Shown here: piece after piece, positions 6,668 through 14,941 of the stretch
Layout of the letters: the number at the start of each line of letters is the position of its first letter
Numbering within the stretch: the stretch's first letter is position 1
Made by a program: the position numbers and the translations under genes
The notes under the pieces: model-generated
Database searches by the model: none
The model's input: only the letters and a program-made list of their open reading frames with translations
Told to the model about the DNA's origin: nothing
Virus record (IMG/VR): IMGVR_UViG_2545824709_000009
From: a virus
Lineage: Duplodnaviria; Heunggongvirae; Uroviricota; Caudoviricetes
Direction: 5' to 3' (one strand)
DNA length: 14,941 nt

Positions 6668-6743
6668 GGCTGAACTCCTGAAAATGGCTGTGAAAATATC
6701 GCCCGCGAAATGCCAGGCTGATTAGGAAAACAGGAAAGGGGGG

Positions 6744-7034
6744 TTAGTGATTCAGGCCGTTACCGCGTCCGTCGAGAAAAACTTCCACGAGCAAATCACG
6801 GGTATAAGTGCGCTCGATGCCGCGATGCAGATAAAGCCGTCCGCGTAAATTAGCTGATGCAGTCCAGGTACCATCTTTGTGTTTGACCAGCATTCCTGGC
6901 ATGACCGCACCTCGATTAACGGTCTGCGTTCCGTAATGTTGATGAACCATAAAAACTCCTGCCCGTAAGCTGGGCTGCTGAACATATAAAGACTTCTGCG
7001 CGTATTCAGGCGGTGGATGGCCGCCGGTTGTCAT
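6744..7034 (-). CDS. Hypothetical early-left protein at the kil/cIII position (first ORF downstream of pL)
   Basis: 96-codon ORF from the track. An internal ATG at 6950 (MVHQHYGTQTVNRG...) is preceded by a strong AGGAG RBS and may be the real start, giving 68 aa. Its stop sits where lambda kil ends. No family recognised, and no arginine-rich motif of N type. Confidence 0.5.
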   Translation of the reverse strand: MTTGGHPPPEYAQKSLYVQQPSLRAGVFMVHQHYGTQTVNRGAVMPGMLVKHKDGTWTASANLRGRLYLHRGIERTYTRDLLVEVFLDGRGNGLNH

Positions 7035-7204
7035 AACTAAGCCGCCTCGTTGAAGCGACTAAGGTATGAAATGTTGAGTTAATTTCAGCTGGTCACACCG
7101 ACGTTCACGCGTCCGTTTCACCCCTCGCACTCCCCGAAGCCTGCTGAAATTCAAACTGCGGATCTAAGCGGTCATCGCAACGGTGAATCAGGTAGTTGCC
7201 GTAT

Positions 7205-7290
7205 CGTTGTGTTGTTGCGATGAACTTATTTAAAACTATAGTTGTTTTATCGTCAACAACAAAAGTTGTTTTATTGGTTGTTTTAGATAT
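7205..7290 (-). promoter_or_regulatory. Putative OL operators and pL promoter
   Basis: Palindrome GTTGTTttatcgtcAACAAC (7241-7260) overlapping a -35 TTGACG (minus strand, 7251-7256), with a TTTTAAAT -10-like element about 16-17 bp downstream (7228-7235). Further GTTGTTTTA half-sites at 7265 and 7277. The module is nearly a copy of the OR/pR module at 8277-8312. Confidence 0.5.
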
Positions 7291-7396
7291 AACTGGTTGT
7301 ATTTAGGATGGATTTATTTTGTGACTTGAATCGCATAGCGATAACTGAAGCGAGGTTATGGTGGTTTTTTTAACGGTGTGTGTGATGAGGGGAGGG

Positions 7397-7424
7397 CAAA
7401 AGAAAACCCGGCACGGTGACCGGG
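7397..7424 (-). terminator. Putative intrinsic terminator downstream of cI
   Basis: Minus-strand reading gives CCCGG-tcaccgtg-CCGGG followed by TTTTCTTTTG, about 120 nt past the cI stop. Confidence 0.5.
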
Positions 7425-7545
7425 ATTCTTACGCCGTTAGGTAAAGATATTATTGCGGTGGCTTAATATTACTACCTAGAGCAAAGATAGGAATTAGTTC
7501 TTTACTGAATGAGCACAATGCCCAGTTGATAATTTTTAATTGGTA

Positions 7546-8235
7546 CTACCCATGCTTCCTATATGTCTGCGGCATGCTCCCAATAACCTTACCGAAGATG
7601 AACACCCGGTTCATCTCGTCTTTCTCGATCGGGTCCCACGGTGAGTAGCTTTTGTTATCAGAGATGACCAGCAGCTTATTCTTCATCATTTGCAGGCGCT
7701 TTACATGGGCTGTGTCGTCGTACAGAAACGCATAGATACCATCACCGTCGAAAGATTTAACTGTGATATCAACGAACAGCAGATCACCTGGTTCGATCGT
7801 TCCTGACATGCTGTCACCACGCACGTTAATGATGCGGATATTTTCCGCCTTCCTACCATCGAACATGTGACGAGCATCGTCAAACGAGTACTCAACCGAG
7901 CGTAGAACTTCTACAAACTCACGGTTGATGACTCCCGGCCCAGCACTGACTTCTATATCAAGAACGTCAATCTTGAAGTATTTGGAATGGCTGACAGTTG
8001 ATTGTATTGGTTGCACTGTACTGTCTGACATATTTCCAACGCCAGAAGATAACCATTCTGCGCGCACACCCAAAGCGTTCGCGATCTCCACGATTTTAGT
8101 TGTTTGATTAGCTTTCCCTGTTTCGATTTTCTGAATAGCAGCCTGGCTAACCCCGACCAAATCCCCAAGCGCCTTTTGTGTAAGGCCTCGCGCTAATCTG
8201 GCTTCTTTAAGTCTTTCTGAGAGTGTTGTTTTCAT
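7546..8235 (-). CDS. cI: Prophage repressor CI (N-terminal HTH, C-terminal S24 LexA-like autopeptidase domain)
   Basis: ORF with start chosen at MKTTLSERLKEARLARGLTQKALGDLVGVSQAAIQKIETGK (HTH, XRE-type); C-terminal domain carries the GDSM serine motif and a downstream Lys (AHVKRL). The track's upstream extension (to 8301) runs through the operator region and is unlikely. Divergent from cro across an operator region. Confidence 0.9.
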   Translation of the reverse strand: MKTTLSERLKEARLARGLTQKALGDLVGVSQAAIQKIETGKANQTTKIVEIANALGVRAEWLSSGVGNMSDSTVQPIQSTVSHSKYFKIDVLDIEVSAGPGVINREFVEVLRSVEYSFDDARHMFDGRKAENIRIINVRGDSMSGTIEPGDLLFVDITVKSFDGDGIYAFLYDDTAHVKRLQMMKNKLLVISDNKSYSPWDPIEKDEMNRVFIFGKVIGSMPQTYRKHG

Positions 8236-8339
8236 AGTCCAAATGTACAACCAAGGTTTTATTCCATCAAACGAAAATGGTTGTTGACTAAAAACAACCA
8301 TAGTTTTAATCTTGATTCAAATTAACCACGGAGGTTGTT
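8236..8339. promoter_or_regulatory. OR operator region with divergent pRM/pR promoters
   Basis: 25-bp palindrome ATGGTTGTTgactaaaAACAACCAT (8277-8301) containing -35 TTGACT (8284-8289), with a TTTTAAT-like -10 about 16 bp downstream. Extra half-sites ACAACC (about 8243) and GGTTGTT (8333-8339). Lies between divergent cI and cro. Confidence 0.6.
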
Positions 8340-8570
8340 ATGAACCCAGCTATCAAAACAGCGATCAATATCGTTGGTTCACAAAAGAAACTGGGCGCTG
8401 CTTGCGAAGTTTCACAGCAGGCCGTCTATAAGTGGCTTCACAACAAAGCAAAGGTATCCCCTGAACATGTCGGCAGCATTGTTACGGCTACTGGTGGAGT
8501 AGTGAAGGCATACCAGATTCGCCCGGATCTTCCGAAGTTGTTTCCACACACCGAAAAGAACGCAGCTTAA
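8340..8570 (+). CDS. cro: Cro-like HTH regulator
   Basis: 76-aa ORF directly right of OR and divergent from cI; small HTH-like protein (…QKKLGAACEVSQQAVYKWLHNK…). Confidence 0.8.
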   Translation: MNPAIKTAINIVGSQKKLGAACEVSQQAVYKWLHNKAKVSPEHVGSIVTATGGVVKAYQIRPDLPKLFPHTEKNAA

Positions 8571-8582
8571 ATTTCCATTTCA

Positions 8583-8595
8583 CGCTCTTTAACAA
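8583..8595 (+). promoter_or_regulatory. boxA-like element (nutR-type) in the pR transcript
   Basis: CGCTCTTTAACAA, a 12/13 match to the boxA consensus as I recall it (TGCTCTTTAACAA), 13 nt after the cro stop. No convincing boxB hairpin follows. Confidence 0.45.
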
Positions 8596-8639
8596 TAAGC
8601 AATCAACTTAACAGTCAATTCAAACTAAAGGAGTCAATT

Positions 8640-9179
8640 ATGCAACCACTTACATACCAACAGACTAGCGGATTTAGCCCGACTGCGGTGATAAATCGTT
8701 CTCAAACAAAACAGGTGCCAGGCCACGAAAAAATCCGTGATGCCGTCCGCGCCTGGTCGGCTGTAGATAATCAGGATGTCGTTGCCACACTCATTGTGAA
8801 TGAGTATCGGGAGCAGGGCGGCGGCACCATCGATTTCCCTGATGATGTCAGCCGTGCACGCCAGAAGCTGTTCCGCTTCCTCGATAACAAATTCGATTCT
8901 GAAAAATACCGAAATAATGTGCGTGAACTGACCCCGGCAATTCTGGCGGTACTACCGCTGGAATATCGCGGTTACCTGGTTGAGCAGGATAGCTTCATGG
9001 CTAGGTTGGCTGAAATGGAAAAGGAACTCAGTGAGGCAAAACAGGCTGTCATTCTCAACGCACCACGCCACCAGAAACTGAAGGAAATTAGTGAAGGTAT
9101 TGTGTCGATGTTTCGTGTGGACCCAGATCTGGCTGGTCCATTGATGGCGATGGTTACTACCATGCTGGGGGCGATATGA
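8640..9179 (+). CDS. CII-position regulatory protein, probably YdaT family (the CII analogue of Rac-type immunity regions)
   Basis: 179-aa ORF with a good RBS (aaggag) between cro and O. Motifs NEYREQGGGTIDFPDD and LTPAILAVLPLEYRGYL resemble my recollection of YdaT-like proteins. Not similar to lambda CII. Confidence 0.6.
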   Translation: MQPLTYQQTSGFSPTAVINRSQTKQVPGHEKIRDAVRAWSAVDNQDVVATLIVNEYREQGGGTIDFPDDVSRARQKLFRFLDNKFDSEKYRNNVRELTPAILAVLPLEYRGYLVEQDSFMARLAEMEKELSEAKQAVILNAPRHQKLKEISEGIVSMFRVDPDLAGPLMAMVTTMLGAI

Positions 9180-11192: not shown

Positions 11193-11259
11193 TGAAACAG
11201 GTGAGTTGAGTTCAAACTGTAGTACAATTCTCTCCAGTTTGAACAGGAAAGAATATGCT

Positions 11260-11592
11260 ATGAATCCTTATATTTATCTTGGTGGTGCAATACTTGCAGA
11301 GGTCATTGGTACAACCTTAATGAAGTTTTCAGAAGGTTTTACACGGTTATGGCCATCTGTTGGTACAATTATTTGTTATTGTGCATCATTCTGGTTATTA
11401 GCTCAGACGCTGGCTTATATTCCTACAGGGATTGCTTATGCTATCTGGTCAGGAGTCGGTATTGTCCTGATTAGCTTACTATCATGGGGATTTTTCGGCC
11501 AACGGTTGGACCTGCCAGCCATTATAGGCATGATGTTGATTTGTGCCGGTGTGTTGGTTATTAATTTATTGTCACGAAGCACACCACATTAA
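11260..11592 (+). CDS. emrE: SMR-family multidrug/quaternary-ammonium efflux transporter EmrE
   Basis: 110-aa protein from MNPYIYLGGAILAEVIGTTLMKFSEGFTRLWPSVGTIICYCASFWLLAQTL... with an AGGAAA RBS, recognised as EmrE. The track's upstream extension (from 11206) lacks support. Confidence 0.95.
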   Translation: MNPYIYLGGAILAEVIGTTLMKFSEGFTRLWPSVGTIICYCASFWLLAQTLAYIPTGIAYAIWSGVGIVLISLLSWGFFGQRLDLPAIIGMMLICAGVLVINLLSRSTPH

Positions 11593-11624
11593 AAATAATT
11601 TGTTTTTAAACGACTAAAATATGG

Positions 11625-11660
11625 AGGCTCGTATATTTATATGGGCCTCGTTTTATGCTT
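11625..11660 (+). terminator. Putative intrinsic terminator after emrE
   Basis: GAGGCTC ... GGGCCTC stem (one G-U pair, large loop) followed by GTTTTATGCTTTTT. Confidence 0.35.
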
Positions 11661-11847
11661 TTTGTTAATGTCTTTAGTTTTTATTCATTCTTTTGTGCTT
11701 TCAAGATTATGGTGTAAGAAAATTGCAATACGATTATTGTTGTATATTCAAGATAATGTGACCTTAATTGTCTTTTTAAATAAAAATTAAACAAAAATCA
11801 TATCTCACCACTAAGGTTTATAAAAGCATACTTTAGCAGGTGTCACC

Positions 11848-13374
11848 ATGAAAAAAGCCATAGCATATATGCGATTTTCATCACCAGGTCAGATGTCTGG
11901 TGATTCATTAAACCGCCAGAGAAGGCTTATTACTGAATGGCTAAAGGTAAATAGTGATTATTACCTTGATACCGTAACGTATGAAGATTTGGGGTTAAGC
12001 GCATTCAATGGAAAGCATGCACAATCAGGAGCTTTTTCGGAATTTTTAGATGCTATAGAACATGGTTATATATTGCCAGGGACTACATTGTTAGTTGAAA
12101 GTCTGGACAGACTTTCAAGAGAAAAAGTCGGTGAAGCGATTGAGCGTCTGAAATTGATTTTGAATCACGGTATTGATGTTATAACTCTTTGCGATAATAC
12201 AGTCTATAATATTGACTCATTGAATGAGCCATATTCATTAATAAAAGCCATACTTATAGCACAAAGGGCAAATGAAGAAAGCGAGATAAAGTCAAGTCGG
12301 GTTAAATTATCATGGAAGAAAAAACGGCAGGATGCACTGGAGTCAGGCACGATTATGACGGCGTCTTGTCCGAGATGGCTCTCATTGGATGACAAAAGAA
12401 CGGCTTTTGTTCCAGACCCCGACAGGGTGAAAACTATTGAGCTAATTTTTAAACTCAGGATGGAAAGGCGCTCATTGAATGCAATAGCCAAGTATTTAAA
12501 TGATCATGCTGTAAAGAATTTCTCAGGAAAAGAAAGTGCATGGGGACCTTCTGTAATTGAAAAATTATTAGCGAATAAAGCTCTGATAGGTATATGCGTA
12601 CCTTCATATCGTGCAAGAGGTAAAGGAATAAGTGAAATCGCTGGCTATTATCCCAGAGTCATATCAGATGATTTGTTTTACGCTGTGCAGGAAATTCGGT
12701 TGGCACCTTTTGGTATTAGCAATAGTAGCAAAAATCCTATGTTGATAAATCTACTTCGAACAGTTATGAAGTGCGAGGCTTGTGGTAATACCATGATTGT
12801 TCATGCGGTATCTGGAAGTTTGCATGGCTATTATGTTTGTCCGATGAGAAGACTGCATCGATGTGACAGGCCATCAATAAAGAGAGATTTGGTTGATTAT
12901 AATATCATTAATGAGTTGCTTTTTAATTGTAGTAAAATCCAACCAGTTGAAAACAAGAAAGATGCTAATGAAACTTTAGAGTTGAAAATTATTGAGCTCC
13001 AGATGAAAATTAATAATTTAATTGCTGCATTATCTGTTGCGCCTGAAGTTACCGCTATAGCAGAAAAAATCAGAGTATTAGATAAGGAATTACGAAGGGC
13101 TTCTGTATCATTAAAAACTTTGAAGAGTAAAGCGGTGAGTTCACTTGGTGATTTTCATGCTATTGACTTAACCAGTAAAAATGGGCGAGAGCTATGTCGT
13201 ACACTTGCCTATAAAACATTCGAAAAAATCATAATCAATACAGATAATAAAACCTGTGATATCTATTTTATGAATGGCATTGTTTTTAAACACTATCCTT
13301 TAATGAAAACAATATCTGCCCAGCAGGCGATAAGTACTCTCAAATATATGGTTGATGGTGAGGTTTATTTTTGA
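11848..13374 (+). CDS. ybcK: Large serine recombinase (YbcK-like; resolvase catalytic domain, recombinase domain, zinc ribbon, coiled coil)
   Basis: 508-aa ORF. N-terminal AYMRFSSPGQ motif (catalytic Ser), Cys cluster CEACGN...YYVCPM...C, and a C-terminal predicted coiled coil (LELKIIELQMKINNLIAALS). Very AT-rich. Length and gene order ren-emrE-ybcK match the DLP12 arrangement from memory. Confidence 0.85.
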   Translation: MKKAIAYMRFSSPGQMSGDSLNRQRRLITEWLKVNSDYYLDTVTYEDLGLSAFNGKHAQSGAFSEFLDAIEHGYILPGTTLLVESLDRLSREKVGEAIERLKLILNHGIDVITLCDNTVYNIDSLNEPYSLIKAILIAQRANEESEIKSSRVKLSWKKKRQDALESGTIMTASCPRWLSLDDKRTAFVPDPDRVKTIELIFKLRMERRSLNAIAKYLNDHAVKNFSGKESAWGPSVIEKLLANKALIGICVPSYRARGKGISEIAGYYPRVISDDLFYAVQEIRLAPFGISNSSKNPMLINLLRTVMKCEACGNTMIVHAVSGSLHGYYVCPMRRLHRCDRPSIKRDLVDYNIINELLFNCSKIQPVENKKDANETLELKIIELQMKINNLIAALSVAPEVTAIAEKIRVLDKELRRASVSLKTLKSKAVSSLGDFHAIDLTSKNGRELCRTLAYKTFEKIIINTDNKTCDIYFMNGIVFKHYPLMKTISAQQAISTLKYMVDGEVYF

Positions 13375-13485
13375 GTAATAATCACTTTTTCAACCGTGCT
13401 ATAGTAAGAAAGTTAGGTAAGTACAATAAAATTATCTATCCTGAACGAAGCGTCCTGAGCTATGGTTTTACTATAGGGACTGCCA

Positions 13486-13809
13486 ATGGATGCTGGCGTT
13501 CTCGTTCTAGCAGTTCAACAATCCCCAATCACAAAACAATTCACTGATAACGAACTTTGCACACTCGCCTGGTTATGGCGAGCAGGGAATGTGATGTTAA
13601 TTACCTACCAGAACGTTACTCCTCTTCTTCAGGTTGCGGAGCATCGTGAAGCTGGTCGCTTCACTTCTATCGAGCAAGAATATCCCCAGATACTCAACAG
13701 AGCGCGAGCAATCCTCGTCCGAGAAACGGCACATGTAAAACTTCAGCCGTGGCAGGATGATAAGTGGAGTCGAGTATTGCCGCATTTACCTCAGAATCTG
13801 TTTCAATAA
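13486..13809 (+). CDS. Hypothetical protein (107 aa), unknown function
   Basis: ORF with mid-range GC and a weak RBS; no recognisable motifs. Could be a gene fragment. Confidence 0.35.
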   Translation: MDAGVLVLAVQQSPITKQFTDNELCTLAWLWRAGNVMLITYQNVTPLLQVAEHREAGRFTSIEQEYPQILNRARAILVRETAHVKLQPWQDDKWSRVLPHLPQNLFQ

Positions 13810-13827
13810 AGGCGCTAGTTAGTAAGG

Positions 13828-13853
13828 CTTCCGTCATTCTGCGATGACGGAAG
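13828..13853. other. Strong hairpin (10-bp perfect stem, 6-nt loop) without a U-tract
   Basis: CTTCCGTCAT-tctgcg-ATGACGGAAG, between the 107-aa ORF and the HNH-like gene. Confidence 0.4.
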
Positions 13854-13983
13854 TGCGGGCTGCGTACGGGAGAGCAATTGCATGAATAATATAAATATTC
13901 CGCTCACTCCATATAGCGATTTCTGATACAAACTTATCTATTGTGGTAAAATTATAGAAACAAACTTATAGCGTACTAACCAT

Positions 13984-14679
13984 ATGGACAATATTAATAA
14001 ACACGGGCTCTCAAGAAGAATACCTGAGACAATAAAACGTCAGATAAGGCAAAGGTGCGGCTTTGGCTGTGTAATTTGTGGATTTGGATTTTATGATTAT
14101 GAGCATTTTAAACCTGACTTCGTTGATGCCAAAGTACATGATCCGAATGGAATGACACTTCTTTGCTCCCAATGCAATCAAAAAAGAGCTCGTGGTAGAC
14201 TTTCAGCACAGACAGTGGAAATAGCTGACAGAAATCCCAAGTGCTTACAGGCTGGTTTTGCAAATGAAATGTTTGATTTTCATAATGAGCCTATAACAGT
14301 AAAATTTGCAGGAGTGACGTTTCATAACTGTCAAAATTTGATTGTAGTCAACGAACAACCCATTCTTTCTGTGAAACCTTCACCCATACCACATGGACCG
14401 ATGCTTTTATCAGGAATTTTCTGTAATTCTATTGGTAAGGAGACTTTACTGATAGATGAAAATGAATGGAAAGCTAAATCAGACAATTGGGATGTGGAGT
14501 GTACCGGCCCGCGTATAACAATACGACGTGGGCCAGGAGAGTTTGCCCTCGTTCTAAAAATGGAACCTCCAACAGGATTGATTGTTGAGCGTCTTGATAT
14601 GTTGTATGAAGGGGTCAGGATGAAAGGAGATAAAGATCTGCTGGAAGTTTTGAACCGCCCCGGGAATCCTGGAGACTAA
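13984..14679 (+). CDS. HNH-motif nuclease-like protein, 3' end probably truncated by IS insertion (last ~9 codons and stop come from IS sequence)
   Basis: N-terminal CVIC-x8-H-x13-N-x5-CSQC arrangement (residues ~29-64), typical of a zinc-bound HNH/HNN nuclease finger, plus an unrecognised ~150-aa C-terminal region. AT-rich. The ORF reads into the IS left inverted repeat that starts at 14651. Confidence 0.55.
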
Positions 14680-14941
14680 ACTTCCTGAGAAAGAGGTAAA
14701 CAGGATGACTAAAAATACTCGTTTTTCCCCCGAAGTCCGTCAACGGGCAGTCCGTATGGTTCTGGAAAGTCAGAGCGAATATGACTCACAATGGGCGACA
14801 ATTTGTTCCATTGCTCCAAAGATTGGCTGTACGCCGGAGACTCTGCGTGTCTGGGTTCGCCAGCATGAGCGGGATACCGGGGGCGGTGATGGAGGGCTCA
14901 CCACCGCTGAACGTCAGCGTCTGAAAGAGCTGGAACGTGAA
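14651..14941 (+). mobile_element. IS3-family insertion sequence, IS629-like, left end (runs off the window)
   Basis: Left terminal repeat TGAACCGCCCCGGGAATCCTGGAGACTAAACTTCC followed by an orfA beginning [23 protein letters not shown], recognised from memory as IS629/IS1203-type. Confidence 0.8.
14705..14941 (+). CDS. IS629-like transposase OrfA (HTH subunit), partial at window end
   Basis: [82 protein letters not shown]..., no stop within the window. Confidence 0.85.

Follow-up and report, generated by a model that had tools for sequence, protein, structure and literature searches.

The lysis/lysogeny switches of phages 434 and lambda and of CP-933P are the described systems closest to the one analyzed here. 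The operators of phage 434 are pseudo-symmetric 14-mers with conserved outer bases and a variable centre, annotated in its record as ACAA-N6-TTGT with a spacing of 22-23 bp; a third OL site lies 31 bp from OL2, the pRM -35 element abuts OR2, OR3 fills the pRM spacer, OR2 is located in the PR spacer and OR1 downstream of the PR -10, and the record lists a ribosome-binding site together with a start located 18 nt ahead of the ATG of cI. Lambda, for which the generally known coordinates are used in this comparison, has divergent cI and cro genes, a tripartite OR of 17-bp operators at 23/24-bp spacing, OR2 between the -35 elements of PR and PRM and centred at about -42 of PRM, a leaderless cI mRNA, an OL that repeats the module of O1, O2 and promoter, and a repressor with an S24 autocleavage domain. 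In the lambdoid PaaR2/YdaS/YdaT switch of CP-933P, the roles of Cro and CII are filled by proteins of YdaS type and YdaT type, respectively; OR and OL share promoter elements, the repressor gene is leaderless, and the operators, palindromes of 18 bp, have the consensus half GTTTAGTAA (mBio 2021, PMC8630535).

The window analyzed here, a stretch of 14,941 nucleotides of a Caudoviricetes virus (IMG/VR record IMGVR_UViG_2545824709_000009), has OL/PL and OR/PR control regions on either side of a cI gene at positions 7205-8339 (Table 1), and its assignment as a lambdoid CI/Cro-type lysis/lysogeny switch with its own immunity is supported. The cI product combines an N-terminal HTH_3 domain (Pfam, 5e-13) with a C-terminal LexA-like Peptidase_S24 autocleavage domain (1.5e-18), and its translation shows the Ala-Gly site, the Ser of GDSM and the Lys of VKRL. 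The cro gene diverges from cI over a short intergenic region and is followed by genes for a YdaT-type CII, O, P and ren, while kil, gam, bet and exo lie to the left. As in lambda, OR is tripartite, with OR3 24 bp and OR1 23 bp away from OR2, which lies between the -35 elements of PR and PRM and is centred at about -42.5 of PRM, and OL repeats the module of O1, O2 and promoter; unlike in lambda, the predicted operators are 14 bp long and of unrelated sequence, no N gene follows PL, and the CII is YdaT-type. The shared promoter elements of OR and OL and the apparently leaderless repressor gene are also found in CP-933P, the PaaR2 repressor of which is, however, unrelated to this cI and reads longer operators. 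An earlier note on this DNA had recognized a CI-type switch with a repressor specificity other than that of lambda and an operator not recognizable from 434, P22 or lambda. The assignment as a switch of this type is supported, and the specificity is not that of lambda, P22 or 434. Three similar operators over PR and PRM are matched by similar operators in OL, and all of these change along with the DNA-binding domain of the repressor in the heteroimmune relatives PhiR68_2 and L007. It is likely that the locus is a lambdoid switch of an uncharacterised immunity type in which CI and Cro would act on 14-bp operators, three in OR and two in OL, by a lambda-style mechanism.

Table 1. Predicted operators, promoters and genes of the control regions on either side of cI, with positions in the window.
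Feature	Position	Strand	Remarks
OL/PL immunity cassette	7222..7312	-	Immunity-specific; both flanks shared with heteroimmune phage
PL -10, TTAAAT	7228..7233	-	17-bp spacer; TTAAAT or TTTAAT in relatives, same spacing
OL1, ACAACTATAGTTTT (- strand)	7232..7245	-	Exact motif match; in PL spacer, 2-bp overlap with -10
PL -35, TTGACG	7251..7256	-	Read from sequence; TTGAC invariant in relatives
OL2, ACAACTTTTGTTGT (- strand)	7256..7269	-	Exact motif match; last base is first T of PL -35
Extra GTTGT half-site	7277..7281	-	Between OL2 and OL3 candidate
Candidate OL3, ACAACCAGTTATAT (- strand)	7287..7300	-	Good left half-site ACAACCA only; 31 bp from OL2
Intrinsic terminator of cI transcript	7407..7424	-	CCCGGTCACCGTGCCGGG then TTTTCTTTT; terminator scan
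cI repressor, 229 aa	7546..8235	-	HTH_3 N-terminal domain (recognition helix SQAAIQK) and S24 C-terminal domain
PRM -10, TACATT	8242..8247	-	TA..TT invariant 7/7 (variants TAGATT, TAAATT, TATCTT)
OR3, ACAACCAAGGTTTT	8247..8260	+	Exact motif match; within PRM spacer, touches PRM -10
PRM -35, TTGATG	8265..8270	-	Abuts OR2 directly; TTGA invariant 7/7
OR2, ACGAAAATGGTTGT	8271..8284	+	Between PRM and PR -35 elements; weak left half
PR -35, TTGACT	8284..8289	+	Read from sequence; kept in relatives
OR1, ACAACCATAGTTTT	8294..8307	+	Exact motif match; in PR spacer, touches PR -10
PR -10, TAATCT	8307..8312	+	17-bp spacer; TATTCT, TAATAT or TATTAT at same place in relatives
Possible fourth site over cro ribosome-binding site, ACCACGGAGGTTGT	8325..8338	+	1 mismatch; 31 bp from OR1
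cro, 76 aa	8340..8570	+	All-helical YdaS/P22-Cro type; recognition helix SQQAVYKW

Investigation of the repeats on which the earlier note had built its operators confirmed that all quoted strings are present and that GTTGTT/AACAAC hexamers cluster on both sides of cI, with 18 copies in 14.9 kb against about 8.5 expected from base composition, nine of them within two 200-bp bins (7201-7400 and 8201-8400). A palindrome with an 8-bp spacer is found in OL (GTTGTTTTATCGTCAACAAC, 7241-7260, + strand) and another with a 7-bp spacer in OR (ATGGTTGTTGACTAAAAACAACCAT, 8277-8301, + strand). The PL and PR modules, GTTGTTGACGATAAAACAACTATAGTTTTAAAT and GTTGTTGACTAAAAACAACCATAGTTTTAATC when oriented by transcription, are near-identical as had been claimed, sharing the string AAAACAAC(T/C)ATAGTTTTAA and differing by 1 bp in the distance from the -35 to AACAAC. 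Additional GTTGTT half-sites are indeed arrayed nearby, but not every copy is a site: GTTGT at 7206 and GTTGTT at 7211 belong to a flank shared unchanged with a heteroimmune phage, and GTTGTT at 8225 represents codons 3-4 of cI, reading GTCGTT or GTCTTT in all six relatives. A site made of the latter hexamer and the ACAAC at 8247 (16-bp spacer) was dropped, as the hexamer is not conserved and lies within cI codons. The extra GTTGT half-site of OL, shared by the window, L006 and L009 and lost in L008 and L012, is probably not essential.

Regarding the operator itself, the parse of these repeats as GTTGTT-N7/8-AACAAC is probably wrong, and the pattern of spacings points instead to the 14-mer A(C/A)AAC-N4-GTT(G/T)T, with an ideal form of about ACAACCATGGTTGT, as the unit of constant spacing. 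The motif AMAACNNNNGTTKT has four matches in the window against 0.11 expected, a number reached in none of 200 shuffles, and all four are located in OL or OR. A spacing scan of 12 OR/OL sequences from seven loci, those of most relatives being taken from alignment outputs, counted AMAAC-N4-GTTKT 25 times; the other same-orientation peak (10 at N7) comes from AAAAC overlapping each ACAAC 3 nt upstream, and the GTTGTT..AACAAC orientation has its spacers spread over N6, 7, 9, 10 and 14. The long palindromes probably each consist of the right half of O2 and the left half of O1 across the -35, and would arise because a strong O2 half (GTTGT) faces a strong O1 half (ACAAC) there, which also accounts for their different spacers in OR and OL. 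Weak halves are ACGAA on the left of OR2 and GTTTT on the right of OR1, OR3 and OL1, so that several sites rest on one strong half.

The alternative that each region has one long palindromic operator, GTTGTT-N7/8-AACAAC (up to ATGGTTGTT-N7-AACAACCAT), centred on the -35 and bound by one CI dimer with the other GTTGTT copies auxiliary, is improbable, even though the arms of the OR palindrome are 9 bp long and perfect, GTTGT-N7-12-ACAAC has two matches against 0.10 expected, and every relative retains an inverted repeat here. The bases beside the facing half-sites differ in L011 and L012, having changed together on both sides from ATGG/CCAT to ATAG/CTAT, which preserves the long palindrome; a shift in the consensus of the half-site at position 6 accounts for this change as well as selection on a larger dyad does. 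Against a single long operator, the spacer differs between OL and OR of the same phage and has no dominant value in relatives, and its half-sites have centres separated by 13-14 bp, a distance out of phase with the DNA helix for an HTH dimer of the 434 kind (about 9-10 bp in the homologue). The long palindrome also leaves without a partner the invariant TACAAC-N4-GTTKT beside cI, the most conserved element of OR, and does not explain OR3, the outer halves or the conserved GTTTT after O1, while the sister immunity type described below has plain 14-bp units at this place, with facing halves that form no good long palindrome.

The 14-bp operators are kept in the six loci, from other genera or strains, that have a cI with the same recognition helix as the window. 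The motif matches OR1 and OR3, at a constant distance of 47 bp, in all five relatives scanned with it, and the three of these with OL in the fetched DNA have matches at OL2 and OL1, always 24 bp apart, and in the sixth, L006, the same sites are visible in alignments; as the relatives are phylogenetically related, these counts do not represent independent events. Across the seven aligned OR sequences, the half-sites vary little or not at all, and variation is found in the central 4 bp of the sites and in the DNA that separates them: both half-sites of OR3 are invariant in 7/7 around a variable centre, OR2 is kept in 7/7 as ACGAA-N4-GTTKT, and OR1 is conserved, with L011 exchanging the strong and weak halves inside the same 14-mer (AAAACTATAGTTGT). 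In OL, OL1 is conserved in L006, L008, L009 and L012, its 24-bp spacing to OL2 is held in every relative in which OL was found, and the positions of OL1 and OL2 on PL match those of OR1 and OR2 on PR exactly.

The promoters were assigned by conservation in relatives because a generic sigma-70 scan called none of PR, PL and PRM, its single call being an unrelated site on the + strand in OL; the -10 hexamers of the three promoters match the consensus at 3-4 of six positions only. The best-conserved -10 of PR is TAATCT and not the TTTAAT-like element previously proposed, and the -10 of PL reads TTAAAT. PRM has the form TTGATG-N17-TACATT-N6-ATG with conserved key bases; a first candidate, TAGTCA-N17-TGGAAT, would have placed OR2 inside the spacer and was dropped. 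The A of the cI ATG, at 8235, lies only 7 nt downstream of the PRM -10, and for this reason the cI mRNA is apparently leaderless; no Shine-Dalgarno sequence is found in the freely variable 6 nt (7 nt in L012) ahead of the ATG. Transcription from PL is predicted to start at about 7221. Its leader (7035-7222), folded in a search for a put-like antitermination RNA, was no stabler than shuffled sequence (z -0.51), and an Rfam scan of the whole window gave nothing relevant, the lone match (E 0.92) being due to chance.

A natural exchange of operators and repressor is found in a sister immunity type, which includes Salmonella phage ST104, Escherichia phage PhiR68_2 and Klebsiella phage 6 LV-2017. 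PhiR68_2, ST104, ST-29 and Klebsiella 6 LV-2017, with cI identities of 70-82%, were rejected as close relatives, being mosaics with a different HTH and different operators, and are valuable as the sister type. The N-terminal domain, the first ~77 residues, is homologous to that of the window, with 45-52% identity and no internal gaps, apart from two members that carry small insertions following Gly17. The cI C-terminal domain and the flanks of PhiR68_2 and L007 are identical to those of the window, but their HTH differs (QPTIWRL), and OR and OL have jointly given way to 14-mers with the pattern ATASN-N4-NSTAT, such as the perfect palindrome ATACGCTTGCGTAT; with respect to the -35, the -10 and the cI ATG, these 14-mers are placed just as in the window. 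In the OL alignment with PhiR68_2, near-identity ends at about 7221 and resumes at about 7313, with unrelated sequence in between, and the same holds for L007. The 14-bp geometry and the promoter positions are shared by both types, and the half-sites, ATA(C/G)N in the sister type, the helix and the distance from O1 to O2 (25 bp vs 23-24 bp) differ; because recognition helix and half-sites differ, the two types are presumably heteroimmune. The homoimmune relatives keep the recognition helix of Cro, which changes in parallel with the CI helix, SQQAVYKW occurring with SQAAIQKI and, in the sister type, QPTVWRW with QPTIWRL.

Regarding the relationship to phage 434, the closest solved structure of the cI N-terminal domain is the 434 repressor (phmmer against PDB sequences, 1per, E 4.4e-9, residues 5-68, gap-free), the domain thus being homologous to 434 R1-69. 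Identity to 434 cI is only 28.8% (tblastn), and the recognition helix is QAAIQK compared to QQSIEQ; the Gln at the start of the helix is kept, while Ala and Lys replace 434 Gln29 and Gln33, two of the three base-contacting glutamines of the 434 repressor, and the analogy in base contacts is therefore partial. The operators of both systems are pseudo-symmetric 14-mers with outer bases ACAA..TTGT (or TTTT in the window) conserved around a variable centre and located 22-24 bp apart, with the -35 of the cI promoter abutting OR2, OR3 filling its spacer and a third OL site, a candidate in the window, 31 bp from OL2. Hence the statement that the operator is unlike that of 434 applies to its sequence but not to its geometry and outer bases. 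The locus does not belong to imm434, since the helix differs and OL2 alone fits ACAA-N6-TTGT exactly, the other sites having TTTT or ACGA. The half-site also extends to a conserved fifth base (ACAAC), with many halves reading AAAAC; the PR layout, in which the spacer contains OR1 and OR2 lies between the -35 elements, is lambda-like and unlike that of 434; cI is apparently leaderless, compared to the annotated leader of 434; and Cro, with Xfaso1 Cro as its closest solved structure, is YdaS/P22-type and, unlike in 434, no copy of the cI N-terminal domain.

Recognition of direct half-site repeats, (A/T)AAACAAC(C/T), in the style of P2 C/186, which would make the same-orientation array of OL functional, is highly improbable: four ACAAC copies do follow A-rich tracts in the same orientation on the - strand of OL (string positions 31, 50, 62 and 86), but these follow one another at uneven distances (19, 12 and 24 bp), L008 and L012 lack the copy at position 50, OR has no direct array, strong ACAAC always has GTTKT 4 bp downstream save for the distal OL copies, and the repressor is of the 434/lambda HTH-S24 type and not the P2 C type. 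Least probable of all is that the repeats represent chance A/T-rich promoter architecture or sites of another factor (a host protein or the YdaT-type CII), as, although the region is A/T-rich and contains promoters, the motif is strongly enriched, the same on both sides of cI at loci 1 kb apart, and swapped in OL and OR together with the recognition helices of CI and Cro in heteroimmune relatives with the same flanks.

For the preferred reading, in which both proteins use 14-bp operators, we infer a mechanism modelled on lambda. An SOS-cleavable CI dimer, and Cro, would bind the pseudo-symmetric sites; CI at O1 and O2 would occlude PR and PL, CI at OR2 would be positioned to stimulate PRM, and CI at OR3 would turn PRM off, while Cro would occupy the same sites with another order of preference. 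The PRM transcript would start at or adjoining the cI AUG, giving a leaderless mRNA.

Two further sites may extend this set. The ACAACCA of candidate OL3 is invariant in 5/5 OL alignments, and its distance from OL2 is 31 bp in four of these and 42 bp, one helical turn more, in L012 (Providencia). The possible fourth site of the right-hand region is a perfect ACAACCGAGGTTTT in L012 and absent in L011, and its conservation may only reflect the Shine-Dalgarno sequence. It is rather doubtful that the OL3 half-site and this fourth site are extra phased sites that mirror each other and serve OL-OR looping or act directly on the translation or transcription of cro, or, separately, that the 434 repressor partly cross-reacts, for example at OL2; such cross-reaction is conceivable because the outer bases are those of the 434 operators, and if true it would represent a rare overlapping immunity between unrelated alleles.

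Of 5426 complete E. coli genomes, 1048, approximately one fifth, carry the immunity region at a coverage of at least 80%, and it also occurs in recently isolated lambdoid phages. Operator annotation was absent from the two closest-phage records inspected, and a literature search with three PL/PR strings and phage names found nothing pertinent; a prior listing in the 2005 compilation of Cro and OR half-sites by the Cordes laboratory is possible. In some records the cI start is over-extended into OR, and a correct operator map helps their re-annotation. General understanding of how such switches work is unchanged by these results. With N-terminal domain, OR and OL exchanged while the background is otherwise identical, and with the CI and Cro helices changing in parallel, the natural swap provides a clean, small data set on HTH-DNA recognition, and the operator map would allow homo- and heteroimmunity among prophages to be predicted and reporters or orthogonal repressor/operator pairs to be designed.

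The window corresponds to the early region of an E. coli lambdoid phage or prophage; across 6700-8700 it is 99.8% identical to Escherichia phage PhiR34_1. Leftward from the switch lie a kil-like gene, gam, bet and exo. Rightward, cro is followed by the gene for a YdaT-type CII and then by O, P and ren. DLP12-like cargo genes lie beyond these and encode an SMR/EmrE-like transporter, a YbcK-like recombinase of 508 aa and products resembling YbcL and YbcM; the cargo genes are named by correspondence with the PhiR34_1 annotation. The interval 7035-7221, which separates PL from the kil-like ORF (phrog_294), contains no gene for an N-type antiterminator. The 190-nt PL leader is common to heteroimmune phages and in part similar to phi80 DNA (X13065.1); its folding revealed no unusual structure (z -0.51).

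Regarding the operators, the earlier note had described near-identical promoter modules on both sides of cI and had read long palindromes, GTTGTT-N7/8-AACAAC, as the operators of a CI-type switch with a specificity of its own. All strings quoted there are found in the window, nine of its 18 GTTGTT/AACAAC copies fall within two 200-bp bins beside cI, GTTGT-N7-12-ACAAC occurs twice against 0.10 expected, and the PL and PR modules agree nearly base for base in transcription orientation, their lengths differing by 1 bp; minor corrections concern the -10 assignments and the choice of extra GTTGTT copies that count. The reading as a switch with its own specificity is supported, and the operator unit is re-drawn here. 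The spacers of the two palindromes are unequal (8 bp in OL, 7 bp in OR), and the unit of constant geometry is ACAAC (or AAAAC), four bases and GTTGT (or GTTTT). The corresponding motif, AMAACNNNNGTTKT, has four exact matches in the window against 0.11 expected, a number reached in none of 200 shuffles, and a fifth, weaker copy lies exactly between both OR matches. Centre to centre, the three OR sites are 24 and 23 bp apart and the two OL sites 24 bp. With operators predicted in this way, each long palindrome consists of two halves of neighbouring sites, the right one of O2 and the left one of O1, which face each other over the -35 hexamer. Additional GTTGTT copies are indeed present nearby, but comparison with PhiR68_2 and L007 places GTTGT 7206 and GTTGTT 7211 outside the cassette, and GTTGTT 8225 represents unconserved Thr-Thr codons of cI, so that these three are not retained as sites.

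Features of the immunity region, with operator sites as predicted, and neighbouring genes (window positions)
Feature	Position	Strand	Remark
kil-like ORF	6744-7034		leftward from switch
OL site	7232-7245		exact match to AMAACNNNNGTTKT
OL site	7256-7269		exact match to AMAACNNNNGTTKT
Distal OL half-site	7296-7300		conserved ACAACCA
Slot between cI stop and OL	7313-7545		rexAB position in lambda
Terminator	7407-7424		within slot
cI	7546-8235	-	ATG 8235, MKTTLSERL..., 229 aa
OR site	8247-8260		exact match to AMAACNNNNGTTKT
OR2	8271-8284		weaker copy, ACGAAAATGGTTGT
OR site	8294-8307		exact match to AMAACNNNNGTTKT
Additional motif match	8325-8338		ACCACGGAGGTTGT, one mismatch
cro	8340-8570	+	YdaS-family
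DLP12-like cargo	11200-14700		past ren

In the annotated record of phage 434 the operators are 14 bp long (ACAA-N6-TTGT) and spaced 22-23 bp, OL2 and OL3 are 31 bp apart, the -35 of pRM is directly adjacent to OR2, and the pRM spacer contains OR3. The window sites share this geometry and the outer bases, OL2 (ACAACTTTTGTTGT) is an exact fit to the 434 consensus, and the conserved ACAACCA half-site stands 31 bp from OL2, as does OL3 in 434. On the PR side, the arrangement of the promoters resembles that of lambda. Judged by sequence, the switch is of lambda layout with putative operators of 434 geometry and new sequence. Through its Cro and CII of the YdaS/YdaT type the region is connected with the CP-933P switch, which has a different repressor and different operators. 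Neither of the two closest-phage records inspected carries an operator annotation, and literature text gave no match to the strings searched, a scope outside which an older Cro/OR half-site compilation falls.

With the cI N-terminal domain as query, species-representative genomes were scanned for relatives, and the same recognition helix (SQAAIQKIETGK) was detected in Kosakonia, Enterobacter, Klebsiella grimontii, Symbiopectobacterium and Providencia; in the E. coli locus L006 the same N-terminal domain is joined to another C-terminal domain. In a seven-way OR alignment the half-sites are (near-)invariant and the central four bases and inter-site DNA variable, with OR3 occurring as ACAACC-AA/GT/AT-GGTTTT, ACAACTACGGTTGT and ACAACTTCAGTTGT, and with the strong and weak halves of OR1 exchanged inside the same 14-mer in Symbiopectobacterium. 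OR1 and OR3 were matched in all five loci scanned with the motif (L008-L012), each time 47 bp apart, and OL2 and OL1 in the three with OL in the fetched DNA, at a constant 24 bp; the same sites are visible in alignments of L006. Across 12 OR/OL sequences, whose motif counts are not independent because of their kinship, spacing N4 has 25 instances, and a second peak in the same orientation (10 at N7) reflects AAAAC overlapping each ACAAC 3 nt upstream. Operators of this kind would be predicted to display just such a pattern, in which halves are conserved, centres are free and the spacing is fixed. That the long palindrome itself is the operator appears improbable: the inverted repeat is kept there in all relatives, and adjacent bases are altered on both sides in Symbiopectobacterium and Providencia, but its spacers are scattered over N6, 7, 9, 10 and 14 in the 12 sequences, a 434-like dimer would not suit its helical phasing, and it explains neither OR3 nor the outer halves. 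Recognition of direct repeats by CI does not fit OR, nor the OL array, which is irregular and partly unconserved.

The 14-bp unit also reappears in a natural immunity swap. Phage PhiR68_2 and the E. coli prophage L007 have a cI C-terminal domain identical to that of the window from about residue 85, but AQPTIWRL as the recognition helix of a different N-terminal domain. Near-identity of their DNA to the window extends up to about 7221 and resumes at about 7313, the intervening stretch being unrelated, and OR is likewise replaced. In the replacement OR and OL, 14-mers with the same geometry stand at matching positions relative to -35, -10 and the cI ATG, among them the perfect palindrome ATACGCTTGCGTAT as well as ATACGCATTGCTAT and ATAGCAATAGCTAT; O2 again ends on the first T of the -35. 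The predicted 14-bp unit is unambiguous in this sister type. HTH, OR and OL thus switch together as one immunity cassette, and this co-switching contradicts a non-repressor origin of the repeats.

Regarding the promoters, OR1 is within the PR spacer and OR2 between both -35 elements. PRM reads TTGATG-N17-TACATT and stands 6 nt before the ATG; its -10 (TA..TT) and -35 (TTGA) are conserved across seven loci, while these 6 nt (7 in Providencia) are freely variable and contain no Shine-Dalgarno sequence. The cI mRNA is thus probably leaderless, and OR2 would then be centred near -42.5. In Providencia (L012 3296-3446 aligned with 7180-7330) the distal ACAACCA is 42 bp from OL2, 11 bp further than in the window, and this shift of one helical turn hints at face-of-helix dependence. 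The additional motif match downstream of OR1, at a distance of 31 bp, overlaps the cro Shine-Dalgarno; its counterpart is a perfect ACAACCGAGGTTTT in Providencia and absent in Symbiopectobacterium, and it could be a fourth operator site or mere ribosome-binding-site conservation.

The cI product has HTH_3 and Peptidase_S24 domains, and its translation contains an Ala-Gly site, the GDSM serine and the VKRL lysine, so that it should be an SOS-inducible repressor. The ORF list and the GenBank records of PhiR34_1 and Turner start cI at ATG 8301, within OR1/OR2 (251 aa), while IdasGreatGrand and RefSeq relatives use the MKTT start preferred here; the extension 8236-8301 is not conserved as coding, with a 1-bp indel in Providencia, and the longer form is thus probably a mis-annotation. 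The closest solved structure to the N-terminal domain is the 434 repressor (E 4e-9, gap-free), relative to which the recognition helix keeps the first Gln and has Gln29 replaced by Ala and Gln33 by Lys. The cI gene is mosaic both ways, with a junction near residues 70-85 in comparison with the relative loci L002/L007 and L006: the same C-terminal domain occurs with two N-terminal domains (window and PhiR68_2/L007) and the same N-terminal domain with two C-terminal domains (window and L006). In 8340-9179, Cro is YdaS-family and the product of the gene in the cII position YdaT-family; Pfam names both 'toxin', and their assignment here agrees with the published view (PMC8630535) that they are analogues of Cro and CII rather than toxins. 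The Cro recognition helix parallels that of cI (SQQAVYKW in the window, QPTVWRW in the sister type), and this co-variation suggests that Cro reads the same half-sites.

Between the cI stop and OL the window has a slot that is empty apart from the terminator. The same slot holds two main ORFs (1074 and 378 nt) in IdasGreatGrand, GevT and GevA are among the features listed under the match to PhiR47_2, and in L006 a YafO-family toxin and a further ORF are encoded downstream of cI; the slot resembles a site of variable cargo or defence genes. The immunity region is very common among E. coli, being present in 1048 of 5426 complete genomes at a coverage of at least 80%.
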